From: a phage
NCBI GenBank assembly: GCA_018093385.1
Contig: GCA_018093385.1_4808.1
Length of the DNA stretch: 64,000 nt
Strand: one strand, 5' to 3'
Below are positions 4,606 through 57,964 of this stretch, one piece after another (positions within the stretch are counted from its first letter, which is position 1; each line of letters starts with the position of its first letter). The notes under the pieces are model-generated. The model saw only the letters and a program-made list of their open reading frames with translations, was not told where the DNA came from and ran no database searches. A program made the translations under genes and the position numbers.

Positions 4606-4998
4606 TCAAAGGTCCAAGAAAAATTTAAGCCAGCTTTCCGCAATCTCGCGGCCAGTAGCCAATCGGTCTGTCTTTTCCATAGGTCTGCACACGCCACAGG
4701 GTAATCCTTTCTGTAGGCGTGTACTATTGCCAATTTTTACCCAAACTTGGCCAGCTTGGTCGACATAAGCTTGGCAACCCATGATTTCGAGTCGTTGTAG
4801 ACACTGGCGAATCGTTTTCAGCTTCTCACCGGACCGGATAGAGCGCGGTCGCGACCGCTGACCGTTTTTATTCACTGTACGCTTGGCGACCGGAATATCA
4901 TTGGTGCGCTGCGGCTTGGGTCGGTAATAAGCCTCTTCGCCAGGAGTCGCACCTGGCGTCAGTTCACGCTTAAGCGCCTTTTCAATGTCTATGATCAT
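4606..4998 (-). CDS. Hypothetical basic protein
   Basis: 130-aa ORF, Arg/Lys-rich N-half. Confidence 0.45.
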   Translation of the reverse strand: MIIDIEKALKRELTPGATPGEEAYYRPKPQRTNDIPVAKRTVNKNGQRSRPRSIRSGEKLKTIRQCLQRLEIMGCQAYVDQAGQVWVKIGNSTRLQKGLPCGVCRPMEKTDRLATGREIAESWLKFFLDL

Positions 4999-5092
4999 AA
5001 TTTATGCCGCAGCAGCATGAATTATTGCGTAAACAATTCCTAACAGGGCGACAACGCAAATCGTGCCCCAAAATGCAAAGCGCCGTGCCTCT

Positions 5093-5299
5093 TTATCCAT
5101 TGTCCACTGCTCCAATATCCGTTAAGAACTCGTGCAAAGCACCTTTCTTGTTGAGTTTTTGCATAGTCTTGATATCATCAAGTGATATACTTTGATCGCT
5201 TTGCTGTTTATCAATGCAAACAAGACTGCCTTTGGCCTTGATGGTCATGCCTTTGGCTTCGATACTTTTTACAAAATCTGACAACACTTTAATTTCCAT
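5093..5299 (-). CDS. Hypothetical protein
   Basis: 68 aa, GGAGAAGG SD. Confidence 0.45.
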   Translation of the reverse strand: MEIKVLSDFVKSIEAKGMTIKAKGSLVCIDKQQSDQSISLDDIKTMQKLNKKGALHEFLTDIGAVDNG

Positions 5300-5579
5300 T
5301 AGAGCCTTCTCCGCTGTTAATGTTGTCCAGAATCAAGGTCGGAATTTCATCTTGAGTCCTGACTTTGTAATGAGAAGGCATCTTGCTTTCTAACAATGCC
5401 TGTTCGGCTTCTCCCTTTGTCTCAAAGAGCGGGATGCACCAATCAACTGCGTTGCCATGTTCATTGCCTGTAACGGCTTTCAAAAAGACAAGGCGTTTGT
5501 CTGCAGGGTCGATGCCGCAAATTAAGTATTTTGGAAGAGCCTTTGCTTTCTGAGCCTTATCAACATCTTCAAATTTCAT
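5289..5579 (-). CDS. Hypothetical protein
   Basis: 96 aa, GAGGTG SD. Confidence 0.5.
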   Translation of the reverse strand: MKFEDVDKAQKAKALPKYLICGIDPADKRLVFLKAVTGNEHGNAVDWCIPLFETKGEAEQALLESKMPSHYKVRTQDEIPTLILDNINSGEGSNGN

Positions 5580-5660: not shown

Positions 5661-7994
5661 TTATTTCGCTGATTTCAGCGCGGCTATCTCTGCCTCTAGT
5701 GATTCAACCTTTTTCATCAACTCCTGCACCACGTGCATCGTGTCAAGAAGCATTGGAGTTGTGTCTAGTTGTTTTTGTTCAACCTCTACGCCTTCGCTCG
5801 GATAGAATTTCACCGTTTTTACATACAACGGGTCAATAATCTCTGCTTGTTGAGCGATGACACCCCTTCTTACCCTTTCCTTTTCATCATTGTTGTAAAT
5901 AAATGTCACATATTCCAACGATGAAAGGTTGCTCCATGCTTTTTCAACCGTTCCTGGCTGTATGTCATGCTTCAAATTCTCATCAGAGATGGCATTCTTT
6001 TGAAGAGTATAAAAGCTATCTGATCCAAGAATTGATACAGAGAAAAACACATCATGAGAGTTAGGCTGTATGTTCATCCTTGTCTGGTACTGCGCATTAT
6101 CATCTCCAACGACGAGCCAAGTGCCCTGCGCAAAACTTCCGTTATTGTTGTGGATCAAACCGTGGTGAAGCGTTGTGGCATAACCTGTATCAACCTGTTG
6201 ACCGCCGCTAAAAAGACTGTTGAAAGCATAGTTTTGACCCATTGACTGTCTCACCGTTGCATAGGTGCCGATTCTTGTTCCAGTCTCACTCCAAGACATT
6301 AAGCTTCCATATCTCGCGGCGAATCTGTCGCTGCTAAGAGTTCCTGCATCATCAAATGCAAGGTCTTTAGTCACCCCTTTTGTTTTATTGTACACAGACA
6401 GTATTGCATAATAAAATCCATCCATGTATGCATCGCATCGCAATCCGGCATCAGCTTCAACAACAGTACCAATTTTGTATTGTGCCCTTACTTGCCCTGA
6501 AGACCCCTTAACCCCAGAGCCTGGTCGAACAGAATCCGCATTGATAACTGACCATTGCGTATTCGCGGCAACAAAGCCACCAGATGCACGAATCACCCAA
6601 ACACCGACAAAGTTGCGCGGCACGATTTCAGCCGCTGATCTTCCGTATACAGGGCTTGATCGAGAAGCGTCAAAGTTTGTTTGTATGAATCTTGAACCAG
6701 AACCTGCTGCTGCTGGAGAGTCCCCAGAAGTGATCGACTGAAAAGCGCCATTAGTCGCCACCTGACTTGGCGCAGAAGCCAACGTGACCATTGTGCGCGG
6801 CGCGGAGTAAGTTATATTTGGTGCACCTGACTCAGAAACGACTCCATTTGATGATGGATTGCCTCCATCACCTCGACCGAACAGGGCCTGAATAGAACCC
6901 GTCTGCACGCCGTTTCGGTCCGGCACACGAAATGTTGTCGTTCCGTTACCTAAAGAGTATTTACCGCGTTTCGCTGGGTCCGCTAACCAATCTGCATCTG
7001 CAATAGGTGAAAGCATTTGCGCATACGCCCAAAGTTCAGGCCAGTCAGCGCGGTTTAACAACTGCCCATCAGCAACGACTTCATACGGTTGAATATAAGC
7101 ACGGCTGTCGCGTAAGTGGAAGTCACCGACGCCATAGTTCATAACGCCGTTCATACTTGGTCCAACGGTGCCTGTGTTTACTAAGTTCTCAACCCAACGC
7201 TTGGTCGCGGCATCATGATCGTTTACTGGGTCACCAGCAAGCGGTGTTGCACCTTGTGGACGAATATTCAACCATGCTTGCGCATTGTCGGCTGACCCTG
7301 TGCCGCCCATAGAAGTCGGAACGATGTTTTGATCAGCGACTGTGCCAAATCCAAAAGCGGACTTCATACCCTGAATGGTAGTTTGGCCTGTGCCGCCGTT
7401 GGCGACTGGGATTATGCTTGACTCGGAATAAATCATGACCCAAGGAGACCACGTGCTATTTTGAGCGTTGAATCTTCTTTGGTAAGTATTGTTAATGGAA
7501 TATGATGTGTATTTTTGAATGCAACTTTCGGTCGATACTCCTGTTTGCAACACCTCTAAGACTCCTGCTTGTTCAACAGGATAGTTCAATCCAAAAGAGG
7601 CGGCGCCATCAGAGTTCTGATAATATTGCCCAAACCAGCTGCCGGTAAGAGCATTAAGATTCATGCCGGAAGGAACAGTGCCAAAATTTCGCAAGGTATT
7701 GGTCAAAGTCGCAGCAGTTGTTCGAATGGAAAGCATGTCACCAGCCGCCCATGCACGCGCTGCAGTTCCTTCCTGCGCACGCTGCACGGTTAGCACGTTT
7801 CCAACTACGGCTGTTACTGTGACGATTTCAAATTGGAGGCCTGTTGCAGCGTCGACGATTGTCGCCACTACACGCTCGTTCGCGGCCAAGGTCGGAAAGC
7901 CCGACCCTGAGCGGATTGTGATTGTGGTGTCTGAAGTCGTCGTTGGCTGGGCAAGCGCGACCTCAAAGTTGTTTTTGAATATTAGCCTTGGCAT
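5661..7994 (-). CDS. Tail fibre/tailspike protein with C-terminal intramolecular chaperone (peptidase S74-like) domain
   Basis: C-terminus LKHDIQP...GVIAQQAEIIDP...coiled-coil tail matches the self-cleaving chaperone module; Gly/Ser/Thr-rich body. Confidence 0.7.
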   Translation of the reverse strand: MPRLIFKNNFEVALAQPTTTSDTTITIRSGSGFPTLAANERVVATIVDAATGLQFEIVTVTAVVGNVLTVQRAQEGTAARAWAAGDMLSIRTTAATLTNTLRNFGTVPSGMNLNALTGSWFGQYYQNSDGAASFGLNYPVEQAGVLEVLQTGVSTESCIQKYTSYSINNTYQRRFNAQNSTWSPWVMIYSESSIIPVANGGTGQTTIQGMKSAFGFGTVADQNIVPTSMGGTGSADNAQAWLNIRPQGATPLAGDPVNDHDAATKRWVENLVNTGTVGPSMNGVMNYGVGDFHLRDSRAYIQPYEVVADGQLLNRADWPELWAYAQMLSPIADADWLADPAKRGKYSLGNGTTTFRVPDRNGVQTGSIQALFGRGDGGNPSSNGVVSESGAPNITYSAPRTMVTLASAPSQVATNGAFQSITSGDSPAAAGSGSRFIQTNFDASRSSPVYGRSAAEIVPRNFVGVWVIRASGGFVAANTQWSVINADSVRPGSGVKGSSGQVRAQYKIGTVVEADAGLRCDAYMDGFYYAILSVYNKTKGVTKDLAFDDAGTLSSDRFAARYGSLMSWSETGTRIGTYATVRQSMGQNYAFNSLFSGGQQVDTGYATTLHHGLIHNNNGSFAQGTWLVVGDDNAQYQTRMNIQPNSHDVFFSVSILGSDSFYTLQKNAISDENLKHDIQPGTVEKAWSNLSSLEYVTFIYNNDEKERVRRGVIAQQAEIIDPLYVKTVKFYPSEGVEVEQKQLDTTPMLLDTMHVVQELMKKVESLEAEIAALKSAK

Positions 7995-8032: not shown

Positions 8033-8374
8033 TTAATTTCTTTTGAGAGGAATATGACGGTGGCTGCCATTATTTGGTTTAATAATGAGCATAAAAACGA
8101 TTAGAAAGATGATGGCTGATATACTTAATTCAATCAGCGCGGCTTGAGATATAGATTGATCTTCATGATACTGCTTTTGCATTTCTGCTTTCTTCTGAGC
8201 GCAAACTTCAGGTGATATGTAATCGCCTTTTGAGTTGCCATAATAAATTTCGCCATTCTCAGAAATAAGCCTGCCGCAAATATCCGTTTCAGCCTGTGCG
8301 CTTGACATCATAATAACAGTTCCGATGATAGCGGCGATAGTCCAGATTAACAGTTGTGATAAAGTGTTGTTCAT
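8033..8374 (-). CDS. Secreted/membrane-anchored small protein
   Basis: Start MNNTLSQLLIWTIAAIIGTVIMMSSAQA with AGAGG SD; C-terminal hydrophobic segment. Confidence 0.5.
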   Translation of the reverse strand: MNNTLSQLLIWTIAAIIGTVIMMSSAQAETDICGRLISENGEIYYGNSKGDYISPEVCAQKKAEMQKQYHEDQSISQAALIELSISAIIFLIVFMLIIKPNNGSHRHIPLKRN

Positions 8375-8804: not shown

Positions 8805-9015
8805 TTTCTTTCCACTCCACAAATGTGCTGCCGCTTGTTTCTCTATTTAGCAGGTATCTGCCGCGCATTCCATGAAGGCTGAATTCAACCGTCGATGGAT
8901 TAGATTTTGAAAGCCATATAGGCTGCCCGTCGAATGGACCGCCTACGCATGTATATTTCGCTTTTGGCTCACTCCTTTTGGGCTGTTTTGCCCGCTCTTT
9001 TATTGATAGTCTCAT
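8794..9015 (-). CDS. Hypothetical protein
   Basis: 73 aa, AGGTG SD. Confidence 0.45.
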   Translation of the reverse strand: MRLSIKERAKQPKRSEPKAKYTCVGGPFDGQPIWLSKSNPSTVEFSLHGMRGRYLLNRETSGSTFVEWKENGK

Positions 9016-9230
9016 CAGTCTTCACCTTGAGATTCCAGACAAGTAAGGACAAGCCACGTCATCGGAAGAATCAAAACCAGAGAAATGAGGGACCAGATAG
9101 ACCAGCACAAGATGACAGACTTGAATGTGTGAACGTCGCCAAACGCAGCAGTAAAACAGAATCCCATTACAAATGCAATAGCTGTGGAATGGTTATCTAT
9201 GGCTTTGATGGCACGGTCGATGAGTTTCAT
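9015..9230 (-). CDS. Small two-TM membrane protein (holin-like topology, function unproven)
   Basis: 71 aa, GGAGGT SD, two hydrophobic helices. Confidence 0.5.
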   Translation of the reverse strand: MKLIDRAIKAIDNHSTAIAFVMGFCFTAAFGDVHTFKSVILCWSIWSLISLVLILPMTWLVLTCLESQGED

Positions 9231-15852: not shown

Positions 15853-15990
15853 ATGCAAAAGATTATTCAGTCACGTTATGTTAAAGTGCGAAATATTAAT
15901 TGCAACTCTTTGCTTTCTTGGAAATGGGCTGTTTACGACTCGATGTTAATTGGCGTTTTAGTTGCAGGAGTGCTATTTAATATTCACTGA
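15853..15990 (+). CDS. Small membrane peptide (45 aa, one TM)
   Basis: Strong AAGAGGA SD 6 bp before ATG; below ORF-track length cutoff. Confidence 0.4.
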   Translation: MQKIIQSRYVKVRNINCNSLLSWKWAVYDSMLIGVLVAGVLFNIH

Positions 15991-16020
15991 ATTCATCGGC
16001 AAAGGATTGCCGCGAGTTTT

Positions 16021-16300
16021 ATACGTATAATGACGTATCATCCGTATCAAGTAAGTTGTTGTTTTCAAAAGAATCTTACGGATGATACGGATGATACGCA
16101 TTGCCGCCGTACTATATAGGAATTCAAATAAATTAATTTAAAATTATATATCTAATTTAATTTTATTTTTTTATAAACTCTTATATATGAAAAGTATCCG
16201 TATCATCCGTATCATCCGTAGCACACCAGTGATAGCGCGGCTTATACACCGATACGGATAAAAATACGCCTCATTTTATCCGTATCATCCGTATCACACT
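16021..16300. repeat. Iteron-like element copy B: inverted repeat CGTATCATCCGTA (16034-16046) / TACGGATGATACG (16077-16089), AT-rich core (16100-16190), direct ATCCGTATC repeats (16195-16221, 16278-16295)
   Basis: Read directly; identical arms and spacing to 84-140. Confidence 0.8.
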
Positions 16301-16352
16301 AATAAAGGCGCGGCTATATCGGTCGTTATACATATTCAAACCATAATTATTG

Positions 16353-16382
16353 TTTGCCTAAGTTTTTTTCATTAGATATAAT
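16353..16382 (+). promoter_or_regulatory. Promoter TTTGCC-N18-TATAAT upstream of scaffold/capsid genes
   Basis: Hexamers followed by GAGGGTGG SD. Confidence 0.45.
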
Positions 16383-16411
16383 ACACAATACTTATTTGAG
16401 GGTGGATGCGA

Positions 16412-30711: not shown

Positions 30712-30715
30712 AATA

Positions 30716-30744
30716 TTGCTTATAGACTCCTTATAGATTATAAT
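30716..30744 (+). promoter_or_regulatory. Internal promoter TTGCTT-N17-TATAAT before baseplate genes
   Basis: Hexamers followed by AGGAG SD. Confidence 0.4.
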
Positions 30745-30768
30745 TTGTTGATCAGATATAAGGAGTCT

Positions 30769-31497
30769 ATGATGGCAGAGAAGTTAACTCAACTTACAAG
30801 CCCCAACCAAACTGACAAATCAAGTATGTTTGCCGCGCTGCAGGGAATGCTGGACCGTGGCAAGTATACCACTGACGGCATGATTCCTGCACAAGTAATA
30901 TCTTATGACCGCAAACAGAATTTAGCAGTCATAAAGCCTGTTATTCATTTCGTAAGTCTTGATGATAAACCAGTGGAGCGTCAACCTCTGGTGTCAATTC
31001 CTGTATTGGCAATCGGCGGCGGCGGCTTTGTAATCAACTTTCCTTTGAAAGAAGGTGATTTGGGCTGGATATTCGCTGGCGACCGCGAGTTGTCGACATT
31101 CCTTGAAGAATTGAAGCCGACCGCGCCCACCAATGGTCGCGCGAAAACTTTCGCTGATGGACTGTTCATACCGGATGTATTTCGAAAATACACCATAAGC
31201 GGAGAGGATGCAGGCTCAATGGTAATTCAGTCCCTCAGCGGCGCTGTACGAATTGCATTAAGTGATGACTCGATAAACATAACCGCATCAGCTGGGGTAA
31301 ACGTGAAAACACCAATCACCACTATCGACCAACAACTGATAGTGAATGGAAAGGCAACATTCAATGGTGGTATAGAAGGGAAAGAAGGAACGACGGCAAC
31401 GCTTCCGACTGGCACCACAATCGGCGGCACAAATGTATCCACTCACGGGCACATAGGTAACGGACCTGGAAACAGAACTGGGGATATGATAGAATGA
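30769..31497 (+). CDS. Baseplate spike/assembly protein (gpV-like, putative)
   Basis: OB-fold-like N-region; start at ATG after AGGAG (ORF track 30745). Confidence 0.45.
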   Translation: MMAEKLTQLTSPNQTDKSSMFAALQGMLDRGKYTTDGMIPAQVISYDRKQNLAVIKPVIHFVSLDDKPVERQPLVSIPVLAIGGGGFVINFPLKEGDLGWIFAGDRELSTFLEELKPTAPTNGRAKTFADGLFIPDVFRKYTISGEDAGSMVIQSLSGAVRIALSDDSINITASAGVNVKTPITTIDQQLIVNGKATFNGGIEGKEGTTATLPTGTTIGGTNVSTHGHIGNGPGNRTGDMIE

Positions 31498-37316: not shown

Positions 37317-37961
37317 ATGATTAATGCAAACGTAATATCTAAAGGGACCGGATGCAGCATGGATGTTGCTGAAAAATGGGTCGACCCCTTCAAGCAGGCT
37401 TGTGAGCACTACGGAATCAAAAGCAAGAATGCCATCGCGGCGCTGCTTGCAAACGTAGGAGTGGAAACAGGCAGTCTGAAGACCTTTGTGGAAAACCTGA
37501 ATTATTCCGCTCAAGGTCTTGCTAATACGTGGCCTAGCCGTTACAGCGCCAGCGGTCGTTTCGGTGGCGCACCAAACTCCTTGGCATTGTCGATTGCCCG
37601 TAAACCAATGGAAATCGCCAATAATACATATGCAAACCGAATGGGAAATGGTTCGGTAGCATCTGGCGACGGTTGGAAGTACCGTGGCCGTGGTGCCATT
37701 CAGCTGACTGGAAAGGACAACTATGCAGAGTATTCAAAGCAATCAGGGTATGACGCATTGAATAACCCTGACATTTTGACTGAGCCGAAATACATTGCTG
37801 ACAGCGCGGCATGGTTCTTCAAGAACAGCGGTTGCATTCCACTTGCCGATGCGGGCGCATTTGATTCGACCGTGAAGCGGATTAACGGGGCCGCGCCAAA
37901 TACGGCTAACCATGGGGATTTGCGACGGAAGCGTTACAAGGGAGCACTAGCAGTTATGTAA
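37317..37961 (+). CDS. Endolysin, glycoside hydrolase family 19-like
   Basis: GWKYRGRGAIQLTGKDNY resembles the GH19 core; AAGGTGA SD. Confidence 0.65.
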   Translation: MINANVISKGTGCSMDVAEKWVDPFKQACEHYGIKSKNAIAALLANVGVETGSLKTFVENLNYSAQGLANTWPSRYSASGRFGGAPNSLALSIARKPMEIANNTYANRMGNGSVASGDGWKYRGRGAIQLTGKDNYAEYSKQSGYDALNNPDILTEPKYIADSAAWFFKNSGCIPLADAGAFDSTVKRINGAAPNTANHGDLRRKRYKGALAVM

Positions 37962-37962
37962 G

Positions 37963-37993
37963 AAAAAGGCCCATATGGGCCTTTGTTTATTTT
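37963..37993. terminator. Bidirectional rho-independent terminator (AAAGGCCC-ATAT-GGGCCTTT, T-run after)
   Basis: Perfect palindrome between convergent genes. Confidence 0.75.
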
Positions 37994-38217
37994 ACGGCTT
38001 CAACCTGGACGGGCGGCGCGGAACTTGTATCAATGTCTGGCAAGTCGAAGTAATACCCCGCCATGCCAATCACGCCAACAATCGCGGCCCGTGCCACCTT
38101 GTTGCTAATTGACTCCCCAATAAGCTTTACCAACAGGGACAAGATTTGAGACGTCAAAGCCTTTTTCAGCCTTTTGTTTTCTTCCAAATCTTTCTGCATA
38201 ACTACCACCCATGTCAA
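37987..38217 (-). CDS. Small hypothetical protein with short hydrophobic segment
   Basis: 76 aa. Confidence 0.4.
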   Translation of the reverse strand: MTWVVVMQKDLEENKRLKKALTSQILSLLVKLIGESISNKVARAAIVGVIGMAGYYFDLPDIDTSSAPPVQVEAVK

Positions 38218-38756
38218 CGCACATCCTGTGTCTTAACATTACCTGAAGCATCTCTTAAGGGCAGTGGATAGTAGGCCATTTGGTAGTCTGATACGCCTTC
38301 AACATGATAAAACACGATTACGTCTTTGCTGTTGATGAGCATGTTAACGACATCTGATTTATCTTCTGGAGTGAGTATGAGTGCGCCGCCTGTCCTGCTG
38401 TCTACTGCAACAGGGTATGTCTTGTCGACAAGGCCGCTGTCCAATGTATTATACCTGACAACGATTTCAGGGGCATCAACTTTTGCAATTGACATTCCGA
38501 ACACAAACGACACGACTTGGCGACCGCGATCATTCATTACGCACATCTTTTCCTTGTCAAACCTTTCCTTTATCACATCGTATTTGTTCCAGCAAAATTC
38601 GAACGATTGACCGTTGTTAAAATATCTCGTTAACACTTTGGCATTACTATTTGGCGGCGTAAACATACTTTCAGCCGCTGCACTTTTGGTGAAGAACAAA
38701 ACTGTCAGCATAGCCATGATGATGATCAAAACGATCTTTAAATTTTTCGATTTCAT
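38214..38756 (-). CDS. Secreted protein (signal peptide)
   Basis: Lys-rich start then hydrophobic core ending AAA; AAAGGTG SD. Confidence 0.5.
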   Translation of the reverse strand: MKSKNLKIVLIIIMAMLTVLFFTKSAAAESMFTPPNSNAKVLTRYFNNGQSFEFCWNKYDVIKERFDKEKMCVMNDRGRQVVSFVFGMSIAKVDAPEIVVRYNTLDSGLVDKTYPVAVDSRTGGALILTPEDKSDVVNMLINSKDVIVFYHVEGVSDYQMAYYPLPLRDASGNVKTQDVR

Positions 38757-38832
38757 TATAATTCACCTTTTGATTACGAATATTAATAGTATAGGCCGAA
38801 GGTTTTGAAAGTAAATAAGGCGAAAGGTAAAT

Positions 38833-38860
38833 AAAAGAAAAGCCGGAGATTTCCGGCTTT
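38833..38860 (-). terminator. Rho-independent terminator after ligase gene (GCCGGA-GATT-TCCGGC, U-run on minus strand)
   Basis: Stem plus A-run on plus strand. Confidence 0.65.
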
Positions 38861-39910: not shown

Positions 39911-40500
39911 TCAAACTCCTTATTCATCACTTGTTCCAGCGCATAGGCGTAAGCCTGATCAGTCGATTTGATAAACGTGCCGTTGTACATGACGCCTTTG
40001 CGGTCTTTGATGTCTTCGTAGGCAGCTTGCGCACAGTCGGATAAGCGAAGGCCATAATCATGAGCTACGCCGGAAAGGTAATCGACTGCGGCCATGATGG
40101 TGACGTCAATATCCATGGTTTGATTCTTGGCAATAGCATCACCAAGTCGTCCAAGGGTCTTTGCCAGGCGAAGGATAAATGAATGAGGGTGAGCGCCTTT
40201 ATCAGCGCAACCGCCGCCATTAATGTTTTCGATTTCAGCACCGTTTTGCGCTGCCAGGATGGTCAACACGACAAGGCAATCGCCAATGTCGTCCTTAATT
40301 GCGGCTTGCAAGTCACAGATGGCCTGCTCTGTATATCCAATTTCGGGGTCGAAGAACACAAGGTCATGGAGTTGATCAACGTGGTCGGTCAACTCCCCAA
40401 ACTCGCTGATAAGCTTCGGGTATTGGTCCTTAAGGTCGCAACCTTGGATGATGTTACGGTCAGAAGCCCACTGGCGAATGTTTGCATAAATCTGGTTCAT
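39907..40500 (-). CDS. MazG-like nucleoside triphosphate pyrophosphohydrolase (putative)
   Basis: EFGELTDHV...DIGDCLVVLTILA and RLAKTLGRLGD segments resemble MazG helices. Confidence 0.45.
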   Translation of the reverse strand: MNQIYANIRQWASDRNIIQGCDLKDQYPKLISEFGELTDHVDQLHDLVFFDPEIGYTEQAICDLQAAIKDDIGDCLVVLTILAAQNGAEIENINGGGCADKGAHPHSFILRLAKTLGRLGDAIAKNQTMDIDVTIMAAVDYLSGVAHDYGLRLSDCAQAAYEDIKDRKGVMYNGTFIKSTDQAYAYALEQVMNKEFE

Positions 40501-41015
40501 TTATTTTCCTTTGATGCATTGAATTGATCGATTTTTATTTTAGCCTGATTATAAGTATCAATCAAGCTATTAACTTTCTCTTTTAATCGGCTTGTTTCTG
40601 CGGCGAACTGAACAAGAAATCTGACATCTCCTTCTGATAGTCCACAGTTTCCTTCTGGGATAGAGAGGCGTCCAGTGGTCGCAGAGTCGGGCATACTCCT
40701 GAGTAACTCACGGGAGCAGCTGAGTTGCGCGCGCAGCTTGATATTCCCAGACTTGTAACGAGCAATAGTGTCATCAGCAACCAGTTGCGCTTCCTGGCGA
40801 CCTTTCTCATATGCCGATGCCGATTCAACCTGTAAAGATGCAATTTGCTCTTCGAGTGCATTTATCTTGTCCTTACGCTCATTCAGCGATGTCAGATATT
40901 GGTTATCCTTGGCCAGTGATGCGTTGGTTTGCTGCAGGTCTTCAACGTATGATCCAGCGGCAAACGCGCCAACAAGGGCCAGAATCTTCAGGAGCGGTAC
41001 AATTCTTTCTATCAT
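40497..41015 (-). CDS. Rz: i-spanin (Rz-like)
   Basis: N-terminal TM, coiled-coil body, C-terminal resemblance to lambda Rz. Confidence 0.6.
   Translation of the reverse strand: MIERIVPLLKILALVGAFAAGSYVEDLQQTNASLAKDNQYLTSLNERKDKINALEEQIASLQVESASAYEKGRQEAQLVADDTIARYKSGNIKLRAQLSCSRELLRSMPDSATTGRLSIPEGNCGLSEGDVRFLVQFAAETSRLKEKVNSLIDTYNQAKIKIDQFNASKENK
40583..40861 (-). CDS. Rz1: o-spanin (Rz1-like lipoprotein) embedded in +1 frame inside Rz; start uncertain (40861, 40810 or 40774)
   Basis: Basic n-region, hydrophobic LLMTLLLVTSLGI, lipobox-like ISSC, Pro-containing mature part with second Cys. Confidence 0.5.
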   Translation of the reverse strand: MHSKSKLHLYRLNRHRHMRKVARKRNWLLMTLLLVTSLGISSCARNSAAPVSYSGVCPTLRPLDASLSQKETVDYQKEMSDFLFSSPQKQAD

Positions 41016-42810: not shown

Positions 42811-42842
42811 TTTGTATTCCTCTGTTTCGTTTCGATGAAGTA

Positions 42843-42871
42843 ATTATGACTCATCTTCCGTGACAAGTCAA
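42843..42871 (-). promoter_or_regulatory. Promoter TTGACT-N17-CATAAT; shares about 30 bp with the promoter at 49676-49704
   Basis: ttcgtttcgatga(a/g)gtaa(t/a)tat(g/a)actcatc present at both sites. Confidence 0.45.
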
Positions 42872-42884
42872 ATTATTTTTGATA

Positions 42885-48859: not shown

Positions 48860-48955
48860 TTTGTTTCCTTAATTAAATATTATTGATTAATTACTGTGTT
48901 GTCTTCGTCCTGTTTCTTTTCAGGAGCGGGTGTGACAACTTCAAATGTTCGTGAT

Positions 48956-49639: not shown

Positions 49640-49660
49640 TTATTTATCCTTTTTGGACTT

Positions 49661-49704
49661 CGTTTCGATGAGGTAAATATAACTCATCGAAACGCACAAG
49701 TAAA
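49661..49704 (-). promoter_or_regulatory. Promoter TTTACT-N17-TATATT with 12-bp perfect inverted repeat (49661-49672 / 49683-49694) centred on the -10
   Basis: Read directly on minus strand upstream of SDR gene. Confidence 0.5.
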
Positions 49705-51393: not shown

Positions 51394-51840
51394 TTAACGG
51401 TAATTCACTAGTTGCTGATCACCAGAGAAGGTGCAATGATAAACGAATTGTGCGTTATAAAGCAACTGAAAACTTTTCTTTGGTTCATTATTAGAACTCA
51501 TTGATGTAAAGATTTCTGCACCAGAACGGTTTTCACCAATCAGGTTAATAAAGCCGCCAGTTGAACGAGGCTGAACGAAAGTGAAACGCTGCATCCACGG
51601 AGTCCGGTTGGCACCTTTTCCGGTGAATCCCTGAATCTGAATATTCAGACCTTCTTGCTCGTTCACACCGATGTAAGTGGTAATTGTTGCGCCAGTCGTC
51701 GCTGCGGTCTTGCCGTCCATCGCTTCGCAATCGTAAACAGCGATTGAATCGGAAGTACGGACAGCGGCTTCAGTCGCTTCCATATACATGGTTCCGAGAA
51801 TAGCAGTCGCGGCAAGCGCGATTCCAGTGATGCGTTTCAT
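51394..51840 (-). CDS. Secreted protein of unknown function
   Basis: Signal peptide MKRITGIALAATAILGTMYMEATEAA; AGAGGAAA SD. Confidence 0.5.
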   Translation of the reverse strand: MKRITGIALAATAILGTMYMEATEAAVRTSDSIAVYDCEAMDGKTAATTGATITTYIGVNEQEGLNIQIQGFTGKGANRTPWMQRFTFVQPRSTGGFINLIGENRSGAEIFTSMSSNNEPKKSFQLLYNAQFVYHCTFSGDQQLVNYR

Positions 51841-51858
51841 TTTCGTTTCCTCTATGAG

Positions 51859-51905
51859 TTCTGCTTCAATGATTAAAGTATACGCCCATTGAAGCAGAAA
51901 GCAAA
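51859..51905 (-). promoter_or_regulatory. Promoter TTTGCT-N17-TATACT with 13-bp perfect inverted repeat (51859-51871 / 51887-51899) flanking the -10
   Basis: Read directly; same architecture as 49661-49704. Confidence 0.5.
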
Positions 51906-57554: not shown

Positions 57555-57673
57555 ATTTAGGTATAGATACTTATGAAAGCCGTAAAGAAATACACATTAA
57601 TCATTTCCCTTGTCATCATCCTGGGGCTATTATATGTATTGGATATGGCATATTATTTGGCAGGGGTGAGTGG

Positions 57674-57964
57674 ATGAATATTGTAATTCTTTATGGTGAA
57701 AATATCAGCGATGACGACATCGAAGTTGCCGTTGATGTTTACGGTATCGATGAGGTGAAACGTGTTGAAGAAATTAGTGGCGCAAATCTCAATGAGATTG
57801 TCAAAGAGGCTGGCTGTCCTTCGGAAGAGATTCTGGTGGTTACTAACGATGACCTGTCTTCTATGGATCATTTGCGCCGCATCTTCACCGATTGCCAATA
57901 CCTTCATGCTGTTCAATCAGTAAACAAATTGAGAAAGGCATACGCCAACCAATTTCCTTGCTGA
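57674..57964 (+). CDS. Hypothetical protein
   Basis: 96 aa. Confidence 0.45.
   Translation: MNIVILYGENISDDDIEVAVDVYGIDEVKRVEEISGANLNEIVKEAGCPSEEILVVTNDDLSSMDHLRRIFTDCQYLHAVQSVNKLRKAYANQFPC

Follow-up and report, generated by a model that had tools for sequence, protein, structure and literature searches.

The lysis genes of this phage are best explained, with a probability that we put at about 75%, as the end of a Wifcevirus late operon in which a soluble GH19 endolysin is encoded and to which both the spanins and the holin are unlinked. The window, i.e. the whole stretch of 64,000 nucleotides that was analysed, derives from a Wifcevirus coliphage; it is 98% identical to HermannAdler/Bas98 and colinear in gene order with Mansfield, whose accessory ORFs 020 and 067 it lacks with essentially no other difference, apart from a small extra ORF with a transmembrane domain (TMD) at 5002-5115. 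The endolysin region is 90-98% identical to 29 Wifcevirus genomes, and the lysis genes of HermannAdler/Bas98 (PQ850608), Mansfield (MK903282), ECML-117, FEC19 and WFC are the same in order and orientation, at 92-98% nucleotide identity. According to this explanation, the endolysin would build up in the cytoplasm and would reach the murein only once another phage protein permeabilises the inner membrane, a dependence that we infer from its membership of the GH19 family and its missing signal. The outer membrane would then be breached by an embedded Rz/Rz1 spanin, recognised by homology and encoded in a leftward operon 2.5 kb away. The features on which this analysis is based are collected in Table 1.

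Table 1. Lysis genes, holin candidates and neighbouring regulatory elements in the window
Feature	Position	Strand	Basis and context
113-aa membrane protein	8033..8374	-	TM scans; directly upstream of tail-fibre gene 5661-7994
71-aa protein, two hydrophobic segments	9015..9230	-	First gene of leftward operon ending in tail-fibre gene
45-aa tail-anchored peptide	15853..15990	+	Head-gene module; basic N-terminus
GH19 endolysin, SPN1S/KTN6-type, soluble, 214 aa (activity predicted)	37317..37961	+	Pfam, PHROG and PDB matches
Bidirectional intrinsic terminator	37965..37984	both	GC-rich palindromic hairpin, T-runs on both strands; terminator scan
70-aa LRP-family two-helix protein (phrog_5165)	37987..38199	-	phrog_5165, E=1.9e-8
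180-aa secreted or signal-anchored protein	38214..38756	-	N-terminal hydrophobic segment, then AAA/ES
Sigma-70-like promoter TTTACT-N16-TATACT (putative)	38788..38815	-	Consensus match only
Terminator	38839..38860		Promoter 38788-38815 lies just downstream of it
Rz-like i-spanin	40497..41015	-	phrog_1327 'Rz-like spanin', E=4.1e-25; TMD ~5-23; periplasmic coiled coil
Rz1-like o-spanin lipoprotein	40583..40861	-	Inside i-spanin gene, other frame; lipobox ISSC after signal sequence
34-aa single-TMD peptide	57573..57677	+	Early-gene block

The GH19 endolysin and its distant spanins

The rightward structural operon ends with a gene, directly following that for the tail fibre, whose product is, as judged from its sequence, a globular GH19 muramidase-type endolysin with predicted activity. 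It matches Pfam Glyco_hydro_19 (PF00182) with 30.6 bits for a cut-off of 25.5, the PHROG endolysin family phrog_181 (E=4.7e-69), PDB entry 8P8E over residues 3-212 (E=2.5e-72) and the SPN1S structure 4OK7 (E=2e-28). The putative catalytic pair E50/E59 (VETG...VENLNYS) aligns to E51/E60 of 8P8E; Glu51 and Glu60 were proposed as the likely catalytic residues in a study where muralytic activity was demonstrated for the KTN6 homologue only (PMC11861027). Since the highest 19-residue Kyte-Doolittle mean is just 0.34 (first ~48 residues), the enzyme displays neither a signal peptide nor a SAR anchor, in agreement with the first-pass annotation, which had described a GH19-like endolysin devoid of an N-terminal signal-anchor. 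Compared with Mansfield, the endolysin gene has accumulated 57 synonymous and 14 non-synonymous codon changes, and the facing 70-aa ORF 6 synonymous and none that is non-synonymous; both are real genes.

The spanin pair begins 2,536 bp past the endolysin stop codon on the opposite strand, as had been claimed. The outer gene product resembles i-spanins by family and by its layout, with a TMD at the N-terminus and a periplasmic coiled coil, and the embedded gene specifies, in another frame, a small lipoprotein with a lipobox cysteine. For the latter, M18 at 40810 seems a more plausible start. Both proteins are annotated in Mansfield and Bas98 (i-spanin or Rz-like spanin, and o-spanin), and ECML-117 has been listed with an embedded two-component spanin (PMC6139136). 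With a soluble endolysin lacking a recognisable holin as neighbour and spanins 2.5 kb away, the endolysin and spanin loci are therefore unlinked and on opposite strands, and the lysis genes are indeed dispersed as first described. Every one of the 29 sequenced Wifcevirus genomes shares this arrangement, which their annotations already cover, the records naming the endolysin, i-spanin and o-spanin and leaving the 70-aa and 180-aa genes as 'hypothetical protein'.

Small membrane proteins as holin candidates

The Wifcevirus holin is not identifiable by homology. The complete records of Mansfield (CPT-annotated) and Bas98 list no holin, none of the small hydrophobic ORFs matches a holin family in Pfam, PHROGs or NCBIfam, and the ORFs adjoining the endolysin contain no full-length TMD. 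The ~4 kb of the Mansfield and Bas98 genomes that fall outside the window encode no conserved TMD protein, just tiny accessory ORFs. In the related phage MTx, holin and spanin were likewise not identified according to the CPT authors. The candidates that had been proposed initially (9015-9230, 15853-15990, 57573-57677 and the ORF ending at 37987) all proved to be real, conserved genes whose products contain hydrophobic segments, the first three matching annotated genes of relatives, but that list had missed the 113-aa protein. We tentatively rank the LRP-family protein first, as a non-canonical permeabiliser or helper, followed with less confidence by the 113-aa two-TMD protein; the 71-aa protein, the 45-aa peptide and something else again each seem improbable.

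A possibility that we hold at somewhat below even odds is that a membrane protein specific to the genus acts as holin, namely the 113-aa or the 71-aa product of the leftward operon running from 9230 to 5661. It would have been gained when Wifcevirus phages parted with the multi-TMD proteins of their PB1-like relatives and acquired Rz/Rz1, and the LRP-family protein would be unrelated to lysis or just a modulator. By its physicochemical features, the 113-aa protein is the most canonical holin candidate. Its N-terminal segment, a TMD or a cleavable signal, is followed by an acidic periplasmic loop of ~52 aa with two cysteines and by a very hydrophobic second TMD (-0.5 and -3.0 for the two strong segments on a Hessa-type sum), and the C-terminal tail KPNNGSHRHIPLKRN carries a net charge of +4. 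Size, TMDs and charged tail are thus those of a holin, but the gene lies 29 kb from the endolysin and its product matches neither a known holin nor any Pfam, PHROG or NCBIfam family. Moreover, the first segment resembles a cleavable Sec signal peptide (AQA/E, or AKA/D in Mansfield), and the two-cysteine loop together with the neighbouring receptor-binding fibre would equally fit a superinfection-exclusion or immunity protein. The 71-aa protein follows a class-II-like plan with two TMDs, of which TMD1 is weak and rich in Gly/Ala/Phe and TMD2 is strong, but it too is without a family match, its C-terminus is acidic (-3) and not basic as is typical of holins, and a pinholin-like protein could not release a soluble enzyme of 23 kDa. 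Both genes lie upstream of the tail-fibre gene in the same orientation, are preceded by a good promoter-like site (TTGCCT-N16-TATAAT at 9284-9257, ahead of the 71-aa gene) and are located 28-30 kb from the endolysin.

The distribution of these two proteins speaks in favour of their candidacy. Among phages, tblastn matches to both proteins come from Wifcevirus alone and from each of its 29 records, the 113-aa product being always labelled 'hypothetical protein'. A search of a 5.8-billion-protein index returned only relatives at no less than 93% identity, and HMMER over 1.84 billion representatives added no distant homologue of either; both genes are also missing from the IMG/VR loci around the terminase gene of relatives that are 75-78% identical. 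This specificity mirrors the absence from Wifcevirus of the PB1-like multi-TMD proteins, namely the gp68-like 3-TMD protein (329 records, 0 from Escherichia or Shigella phages) and the gp34-like protein that adjoins the Pbunavirus u-spanin. Assignment of the Pbunavirus gp68-like protein to GTA_holin_3TM was discarded, as it relied on one sub-threshold match (E=0.018) which could not be repeated with Bbp1 or MTx gp064. Promoter class was also abandoned as a discriminator between early and late genes: sigma-70-like promoters are found on all operons and timing therefore cannot separate the holin candidates. The genes around the closest foreign Rz homologue (Pantoea LIET2) were uninformative.

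Concerning the shorter peptides, the 45-aa product displays a conserved K/D pair within its hydrophobic segment, is 100% identical to that of Mansfield despite 6 synonymous changes, and has a counterpart in Pbunavirus by position and sequence pattern (Epa13 gp22, 46 aa). The 34-aa peptide is a weak holin candidate.

The LRP-family gene facing the endolysin

The 70-aa gene is convergent with the endolysin gene at a distance of 25 bp, the two being separated by a hairpin at whose equivalent position in Mansfield terminators are annotated on both strands. The first-pass annotation had drawn this ORF as 37987-38217. The gene is real and strongly conserved, but its relatives in GenBank start at ATG 38199, preceded by the ribosome-binding site GGTGG; TTG 38217 is a possible alternative start that would yield 76 aa and overlap the stop codon of the upstream gene (TTGA). 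That co-operonic upstream gene encodes the 180-aa protein, with homologues at the same position in Kylevirus PA1 (35% identity, E=7e-37) and Serratia MTx (gp059) and a version at 62% identity on the 72.5-kb Logan contig SRR26188688_3650; its AF2 model was dropped before any fold search (pLDDT 44.6). Together, the two genes form their own promoter-to-terminator unit, which would be served by the putative promoter at 38788-38815 found by consensus scan. An antisense 64-aa hydrophobic ORF at 38614-38808 (+) was considered spurious for lack of conservation in the divergent relative L012.

The LRP-family protein consists of a basic N-terminus, an amphipathic helix, a short Gly/Ala-rich hydrophobic helix and an acidic tail, and AF2 models it as two helices (2-30 and 34-50, pLDDT 74). 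Matches were obtained by tblastn in 326 phage records (Wifcevirus, Pbunavirus, Pantoea), with 52% identity to PA1-LRP over 52 aa (E=2e-9) and the shared core L..IL.LLV+LIGE....+.AR..I.G..G..GYY. The hydrophobic helix offers 14-16 uncharged residues between R37 and D52, and its best 19-residue window scores 6.99 on a crude Hessa-type sum as compared with 1.0-5.3 for known holins, thus ranking worse on this scale than the TMDs of lambda S105, S21 and T7 gp17.5. Without a hydrophobic stretch long enough to cross the membrane, the 70-aa protein does not qualify as a canonical holin.

Its homologue from Pantoea phage PA1, the one member of the family whose activity has been measured, was reported to be toxic, to cause leakage of beta-galactosidase from E. 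coli and to raise killing by the endolysin (PMC11538084). These assays are weak: toxicity was slow and low, with ~25% dead cells at 24 h, the readouts were taken at 24 h mostly on fusion proteins, and an unrelated TMD fused to the endolysin acted similarly (PMC11538084). The 70-aa protein may act on the membrane as a lysis helper or serve as a non-canonical holin. This bears on the earlier statement that no clear holin lies beside the endolysin, which stands insofar as the adjoining ORFs lack a full-length TMD; since one of them belongs to the phrog_5165/PA1-LRP family with its weak evidence for assisting an endolysin, the absence of an adjacent partner is not proven.

A less probable proposal than a leftward-operon holin is that the LRP-family gene encodes the true holin-equivalent of all PB1-like phages, a helical hairpin without TMD whose oligomers in or on the inner membrane would let any soluble endolysin through. 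Four PB1-like genera (Wifcevirus, Pbunavirus, Kylevirus and Myosmarvirus) have the gene adjacent to that of the endolysin, with an equal position in Pa193, MTx, PA1 and L012, and in L012 it is kept next to a non-homologous, lambda-R-like endolysin; overall genome synteny can nevertheless account for the adjacency. The codon changes relative to Mansfield point to strong purifying selection, helix 2 keeps small residues on one face (G-x-x-G/S-x-x-G/S), and the toxicity, leakage and boosted killing seen with PA1-LRP go in the same direction. Against these observations stand the missing membrane-spanning stretch, the hydrophilic but acidic C-terminal tail (net -3), the slow and weak effect in PA1 that an unrelated TMD fusion could imitate, and the existence of better multi-TMD candidates in other PB1-like phages. 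Structural comparison by Foldseek against BFVD was uninformative, with no significant match besides family members (Pbunavirus SPM-1, Xanthomonas XcP1). Burkholderia phage Maja gp035, which occupies the equivalent position in an operon with the spanins, was rejected as a homologue on account of an hhalign probability of 0.5% and is therefore a positional analogue only. The still stronger claim that phrog_5165/LRP forms a new class of holin-equivalents, kept beside the endolysin in PB1-like phages of Escherichia, Pseudomonas, Pantoea and Serratia, serving both GH19 and lambda-R-like soluble endolysins and acting as sole inner-membrane permeabiliser in Wifcevirus, is doubtful.

Finally, it is highly improbable that the GH19 enzyme is a virion-associated or holin-independent lysin instead of, or besides, a lysis endolysin: its gene closes the structural operon and mass spectrometry of vB_Eco4M-7 and ECML-117 preparations revealed a 'lytic enzyme' with a coverage of up to 69%, but those preparations also contained helicase, glyoxalase and reductase and therefore included lysate contaminants, an SLT entry lysin is already present on the tape-measure protein, close homologues are characterised as endolysins, and the enzyme has no signal or SAR domain.

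Relation to other lysis systems and significance

The preferred explanation of a soluble endolysin with unlinked partners shares its functional logic with lambda S-R-Rz/Rz1, in which a soluble endolysin needs a membrane lesion and the spanin is of the embedded Rz/Rz1 type. However, the lambda genes are clustered and include the S holin and the R transglycosylase, whereas those of Wifcevirus are unclustered, specify a GH19 enzyme and show no S-like holin. Their layout is that of T4-type virulent phages and not of a lambda-style cassette. The genes of T4, a virulent myovirus, for endolysin, holin and spanins (e, t, rI, pseT.3/pseT.2) are scattered over the genome, the holin gene being located beside tail-fibre genes and the endolysin being a GH24 lysozyme. 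By sequence, the genes described here do not resemble T4 T, RI or the spanins of T4.

Closer resemblances are found among PB1-like phages. In Pbunavirus, a GH19 endolysin (54% identity; 8P8E) also ends the tail-fibre operon and faces a convergent phrog_5165 gene, followed in the same order by ligase and MazG. Unlike here, a multi-TMD protein of 145 aa is encoded in Pbunavirus between terminase and portal, with a u-spanin bearing an AWAC lipobox next to it, and a 3-TMD protein of 201 aa is encoded upstream of MazG; all three are missing from Wifcevirus, where the embedded Rz/Rz1 pair is found instead. In L012, the endolysin slot is occupied by the lambda-R-like enzyme. Similarly, the Kylevirus Pantoea phage PA1 (PMC11538084) possesses a homologous endolysin (PA1-Lys, 58% identity), the convergent LRP gene (52% identity over the core) and homologues of the 180-aa secreted protein, ligase and MazG in equal order, but has the 3-TMD gp68-like PA1-LVP at the place of Rz/Rz1.

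The dispersed lysis arrangement of Wifcevirus is neither peculiar nor new; it is an ordinary one whose genes and annotations are on record for ~29 near-identical phages, and lysis genes spread over the genome are well known in T4-like phages. The value of this work lies in a short ranked list of holin candidates, composed of the LRP-family, 113-aa, 71-aa and 45-aa products. As Wifcevirus infection is reportedly complete in ~10 min (PMC7048862; PMC11990801) and phages of this genus now infect an engineered K-12 strain (BASEL Bas98-101; for Bas98, delta-9CP with restored O16), the search for the holin is experimentally tractable. If the TMD-less LRP-family protein were the permeabiliser, the definition of holins would have to be widened, with relevance to the Pbunavirus phages in therapeutic use, and its action as sole permeabiliser might contribute to the ~10-min infection cycle of Wifcevirus.

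The endolysin and the distant spanins

A soluble GH19 endolysin terminates the late operon (see table). The enzyme scores above the Pfam GH19 threshold, matches phrog_181 (endolysin, E=4.7e-69) and aligns end to end with 8P8E, a solved Pbunavirus-type enzyme (E=2.5e-72), as well as with the SPN1S structure 4OK7, in agreement with the GH19-like assignment of the first-pass annotation. Its residues E50/E59 align with the Glu51/Glu60 pair of 8P8E, the likely catalytic residues, and muramidase activity is confirmed for the related KTN6 enzyme (PMC11861027). Since the N-terminus is hydrophilic (maximal Kyte-Doolittle mean of 0.34), the protein carries no signal peptide or SAR anchor, as had been proposed. 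The endolysin has been found by mass spectrometry in phage preparations, as expected of a virion-associated or holin-independent lysin, but replication and metabolic enzymes turned up in the same preparations, and this explanation is unlikely.

The embedded Rz/Rz1 pair belongs to a leftward operon, at the distance of 2.5 kb and on the opposite strand initially reported; the Wifcevirus ECML-117 is listed with an embedded two-component spanin by Kongari et al. The annotated o-spanin start yields a 42-residue leader ahead of the lipobox Cys. Because an internal methionine (M18, 40810) precedes RKVARKR, a hydrophobic core and ISSC, and this stretch resembles a true lipoprotein signal, the deposited start probably lies upstream of the real one.

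In a six-frame scan of all ORFs of at least 25 aa, none beside the endolysin has a full-length hydrophobic segment, and the complete records of Mansfield (whose annotation comes from CPT, Center for Phage Technology) and Bas98 list no holin. A soluble endolysin, distant opposite-strand spanins and no holin next door therefore confirm the original observation. In the case of Serratia phage MTx, holin and spanin went unidentified according to its CPT authors.

Coordinates of lysis-related genes and sequence elements in the window and in relatives
Feature	Coordinates	Strand	Description
Endolysin	37317-37961	+	214 aa, GH19
Palindromic hairpin	37965-37984		T-runs on both strands; fills endolysin-LRP gap
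LRP	37987-38199	-	70 aa
Signal-peptide proteins	38214-38756 (180 aa, minus strand), 51394-51840		
i-spanin	40497-41015	-	N-terminal TMD; phrog_1327, E=4e-25
o-spanin	40583-40861	-	embedded in i-spanin gene; lipobox ISSC
113-aa protein	8033-8374	-	N-terminal TMD or cleavable signal (AQA|E); very hydrophobic second TMD
71-aa protein	9015-9230	-	two hydrophobic segments; acidic C-terminus
45-aa peptide	15853-15990	+	tail-anchored; head-gene module
34-aa peptide	57573-57677	+	conserved small membrane protein; early-gene block
ATCCGTATC arrays	16034-49, 16077-16101, 16196-16223, 16251-63, 16272-96		
Promoters with bracketed -10	30712-30771, 42811-42884, 49640-49704, 51841-51905		
Endolysin slot of divergent relative L012	10803-11255		150-aa lambda-R-like transglycosylase replaces GH19 enzyme
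Loci compared with window 40497-41015 for the 3-TMD slot	L006 8731-9336, L008 7001-7606, L010 14712-15248		

The convergent LRP gene

Only 25 bp separate the endolysin stop from the convergent LRP ORF, and the hairpin in this gap serves as a bidirectional terminator. Compared with Mansfield, LRP displays six synonymous and no non-synonymous codon changes, a pattern indicating that the ORF is a real gene, as the first-pass annotation had assumed for its 37987-38217 product. In relatives, it starts at the ATG at 38199, preceded by a GGTGG ribosome-binding site, while the TTG initially chosen, at 38217, and the upstream gene's stop codon overlap (TTGA). An ATG in frame also occurs at the matching site of a divergent relative, so the longer form may be used. 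LRP matches phrog_5165, a family of unknown function, and tblastn retrieved homologues in 326 phage records (Wifcevirus, Pbunavirus and Pantoea phages). Homologues occupy the same convergent position beside the endolysin in Pbunavirus Pa193 (gp65), Serratia phage MTx (gp058), Pantoea phage PA1 and the metagenomic relative L012 (Logan contig SRR26188688_3650). L012 keeps LRP and the 180-aa gene upstream of it, but has a lambda-R-like transglycosylase, not a GH19 enzyme, in the endolysin slot; the endolysin module has therefore been swapped. The adjacency of LRP and endolysin could reflect genome-wide synteny.

An alignment over five genera shows a basic N-terminus and an amphipathic helix, from which a charged turn (GES.K..AR) leads into a short hydrophobic helix, where small residues are conserved, and on to an acidic tail; the single-sequence AF2 model (pLDDT 74) contains helices at 2-30 and 34-50. 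The PA1 homologue, PA1-LRP, causes in E. coli a modest growth drop, beta-galactosidase leakage and ∼25% cell death after 24 h, and kills much more strongly when fused to the endolysin (PMC11538084). LRP is not a canonical holin, because its hydrophobic helix spans only 14-16 uncharged residues, does worse than the TMDs of lambda S105, S21-68 and T7 gp17.5 on one crude scale applied to all, and is followed by an acidic C-terminal tail. It is at best a non-canonical membrane-active helper, and it is doubtful that this TMD-less family represents a novel type of holin-equivalent.

The 180-aa gene and LRP form a separate promoter-to-terminator unit. The 180-aa protein carries either a signal peptide or a signal anchor, plus two cysteines that are conserved; it gave no family match and a poor AF2 model. 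Kylevirus PA1 (35% identity) and Serratia MTx (21%) have it in the equivalent place; it is seemingly absent from Pbunavirus Pa193, and is 62% identical in L012, where the order i-spanin, MazG, ligase, 180-aa gene and LRP is conserved.

Other membrane proteins and PB1-like relatives

The 5-kb stretch around the endolysin matches 29 phage records over its full length (90-98% identity), all Wifcevirus, a genus placed in the PB1-like group of myoviruses (PMC11990801; PMC6753283); Escherichia phage HermannAdler/Bas98 is the top match (98.2%). Gene-by-gene mapping showed the window to be colinear with Mansfield, and all annotated genes were then scanned for hydrophobic segments. Three of the holin candidates listed in the first-pass annotation, among them the two-TM protein at 9015-9230, are indeed conserved small membrane proteins; a fourth such protein, of 113 aa, had been omitted. 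The latter displays an acidic loop of ∼52 aa with two cysteines and a +4 C-terminal tail, and is encoded directly upstream of the tail-fibre gene (5661-7994). The gene of the 71-aa protein opens this leftward operon, with a TTGCCT-N16-TATAAT site in front of it. Both proteins occur in 29/29 Wifcevirus records and nowhere else.

The 45-aa peptide is 100% identical to that of Mansfield despite six synonymous changes, and Pbunavirus encodes a counterpart of equal size and position (Epa13 gp22, L007 16281-16421), which has in common with it an S.K.A..D...IGV pattern, a basic N-terminus and, within the hydrophobic segment, a K...D pair; the peptide thus belongs to the head-gene module and is conserved across genera. 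From these distributions, the holin would be either a group-wide protein (LRP or 45-aa peptide) or a Wifcevirus-specific membrane protein (113 or 71 aa). The ∼4 kb of genome lying beyond the window contain no conserved TMD protein.

In Pbunavirus, Kylevirus, Myosmarvirus and Bcepfunavirus, a Gly-rich 3-TMD protein of ∼200 aa (phrog_1544; Pa193 gp68, PA1-LVP, MTx gp064, Maja gp042) is encoded immediately upstream of MazG, whereas Wifcevirus carries Rz/Rz1 in exactly that slot, as if one had replaced the other non-orthologously at a fixed locus. Of the 329 records with the 3-TMD protein, none comes from an Escherichia or Shigella phage, and the 'spanin-less' Bordetella phage BPP-1 encodes its homologue Bbp1 after the endolysin. 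Based on its mass, we take the 21-kDa Pbunavirus 'putative holin' (PMC6521218) to be this protein; its membership of the GTA_holin_3TM family could not be substantiated. Between its terminase and portal genes, Pbunavirus also encodes a u-spanin whose lipobox is AWAC (Epa13 gp36), adjoining a 145-aa multi-TMD protein, a cluster absent from Wifcevirus, where this region has shrunk to two TMD-less genes.

Several side observations were made. Relative to Mansfield, the window lacks Mansfield_020 (76 aa), retains only a remnant of Mansfield_067 (71 aa, N-terminal TMD) and carries ∼200 extra bp with a 32/37-aa TMD ORF (5002-5115, minus strand; Bas98_0108); these accessory differences lie at 4963-5300, 48860-48955 and between 9231 and 9440. 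The 415-bp non-coding gap from the 45-aa ORF to the prohead protease gene (15991-16405) contains dense tandem doublets and triplets of the 9-bp unit ATCCGTATC, in both orientations, around an AT-rich core; it looks iteron-like and may be an origin or a protein-binding array. Finally, inverted repeats of 10-13 bp, such as TTTCGATGAG...CTCATCGAAA (read by eye), flank the -10 element of several sigma-70-like promoters (TTGCTT or TTTACT, N16-17, TATAAT or TATACT), which suggests operator sites or RNA hairpins at transcript 5' ends.

Proposed lysis pathway

The endolysin would build up in the cytoplasm until a membrane lesion made by another protein released it, and the spanins would then disrupt the outer membrane. 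LRP is our tentative first choice as permeabiliser (probability of about 0.3). The 113-aa protein is a slightly weaker possibility, while the 71-aa protein, the 45-aa peptide and some further protein are each less likely still.

Dispersed lysis genes are a familiar arrangement, and since the genes are also annotated in ∼29 deposited genomes, the layout is already known and ordinary. The identity of the holin is a modest question, made slightly more interesting by an infection reported to be complete in ∼10 min in Wifcevirus (PMC7048862; PMC11990801) and by phages Bas98-101, which make it testable in E. coli K-12.
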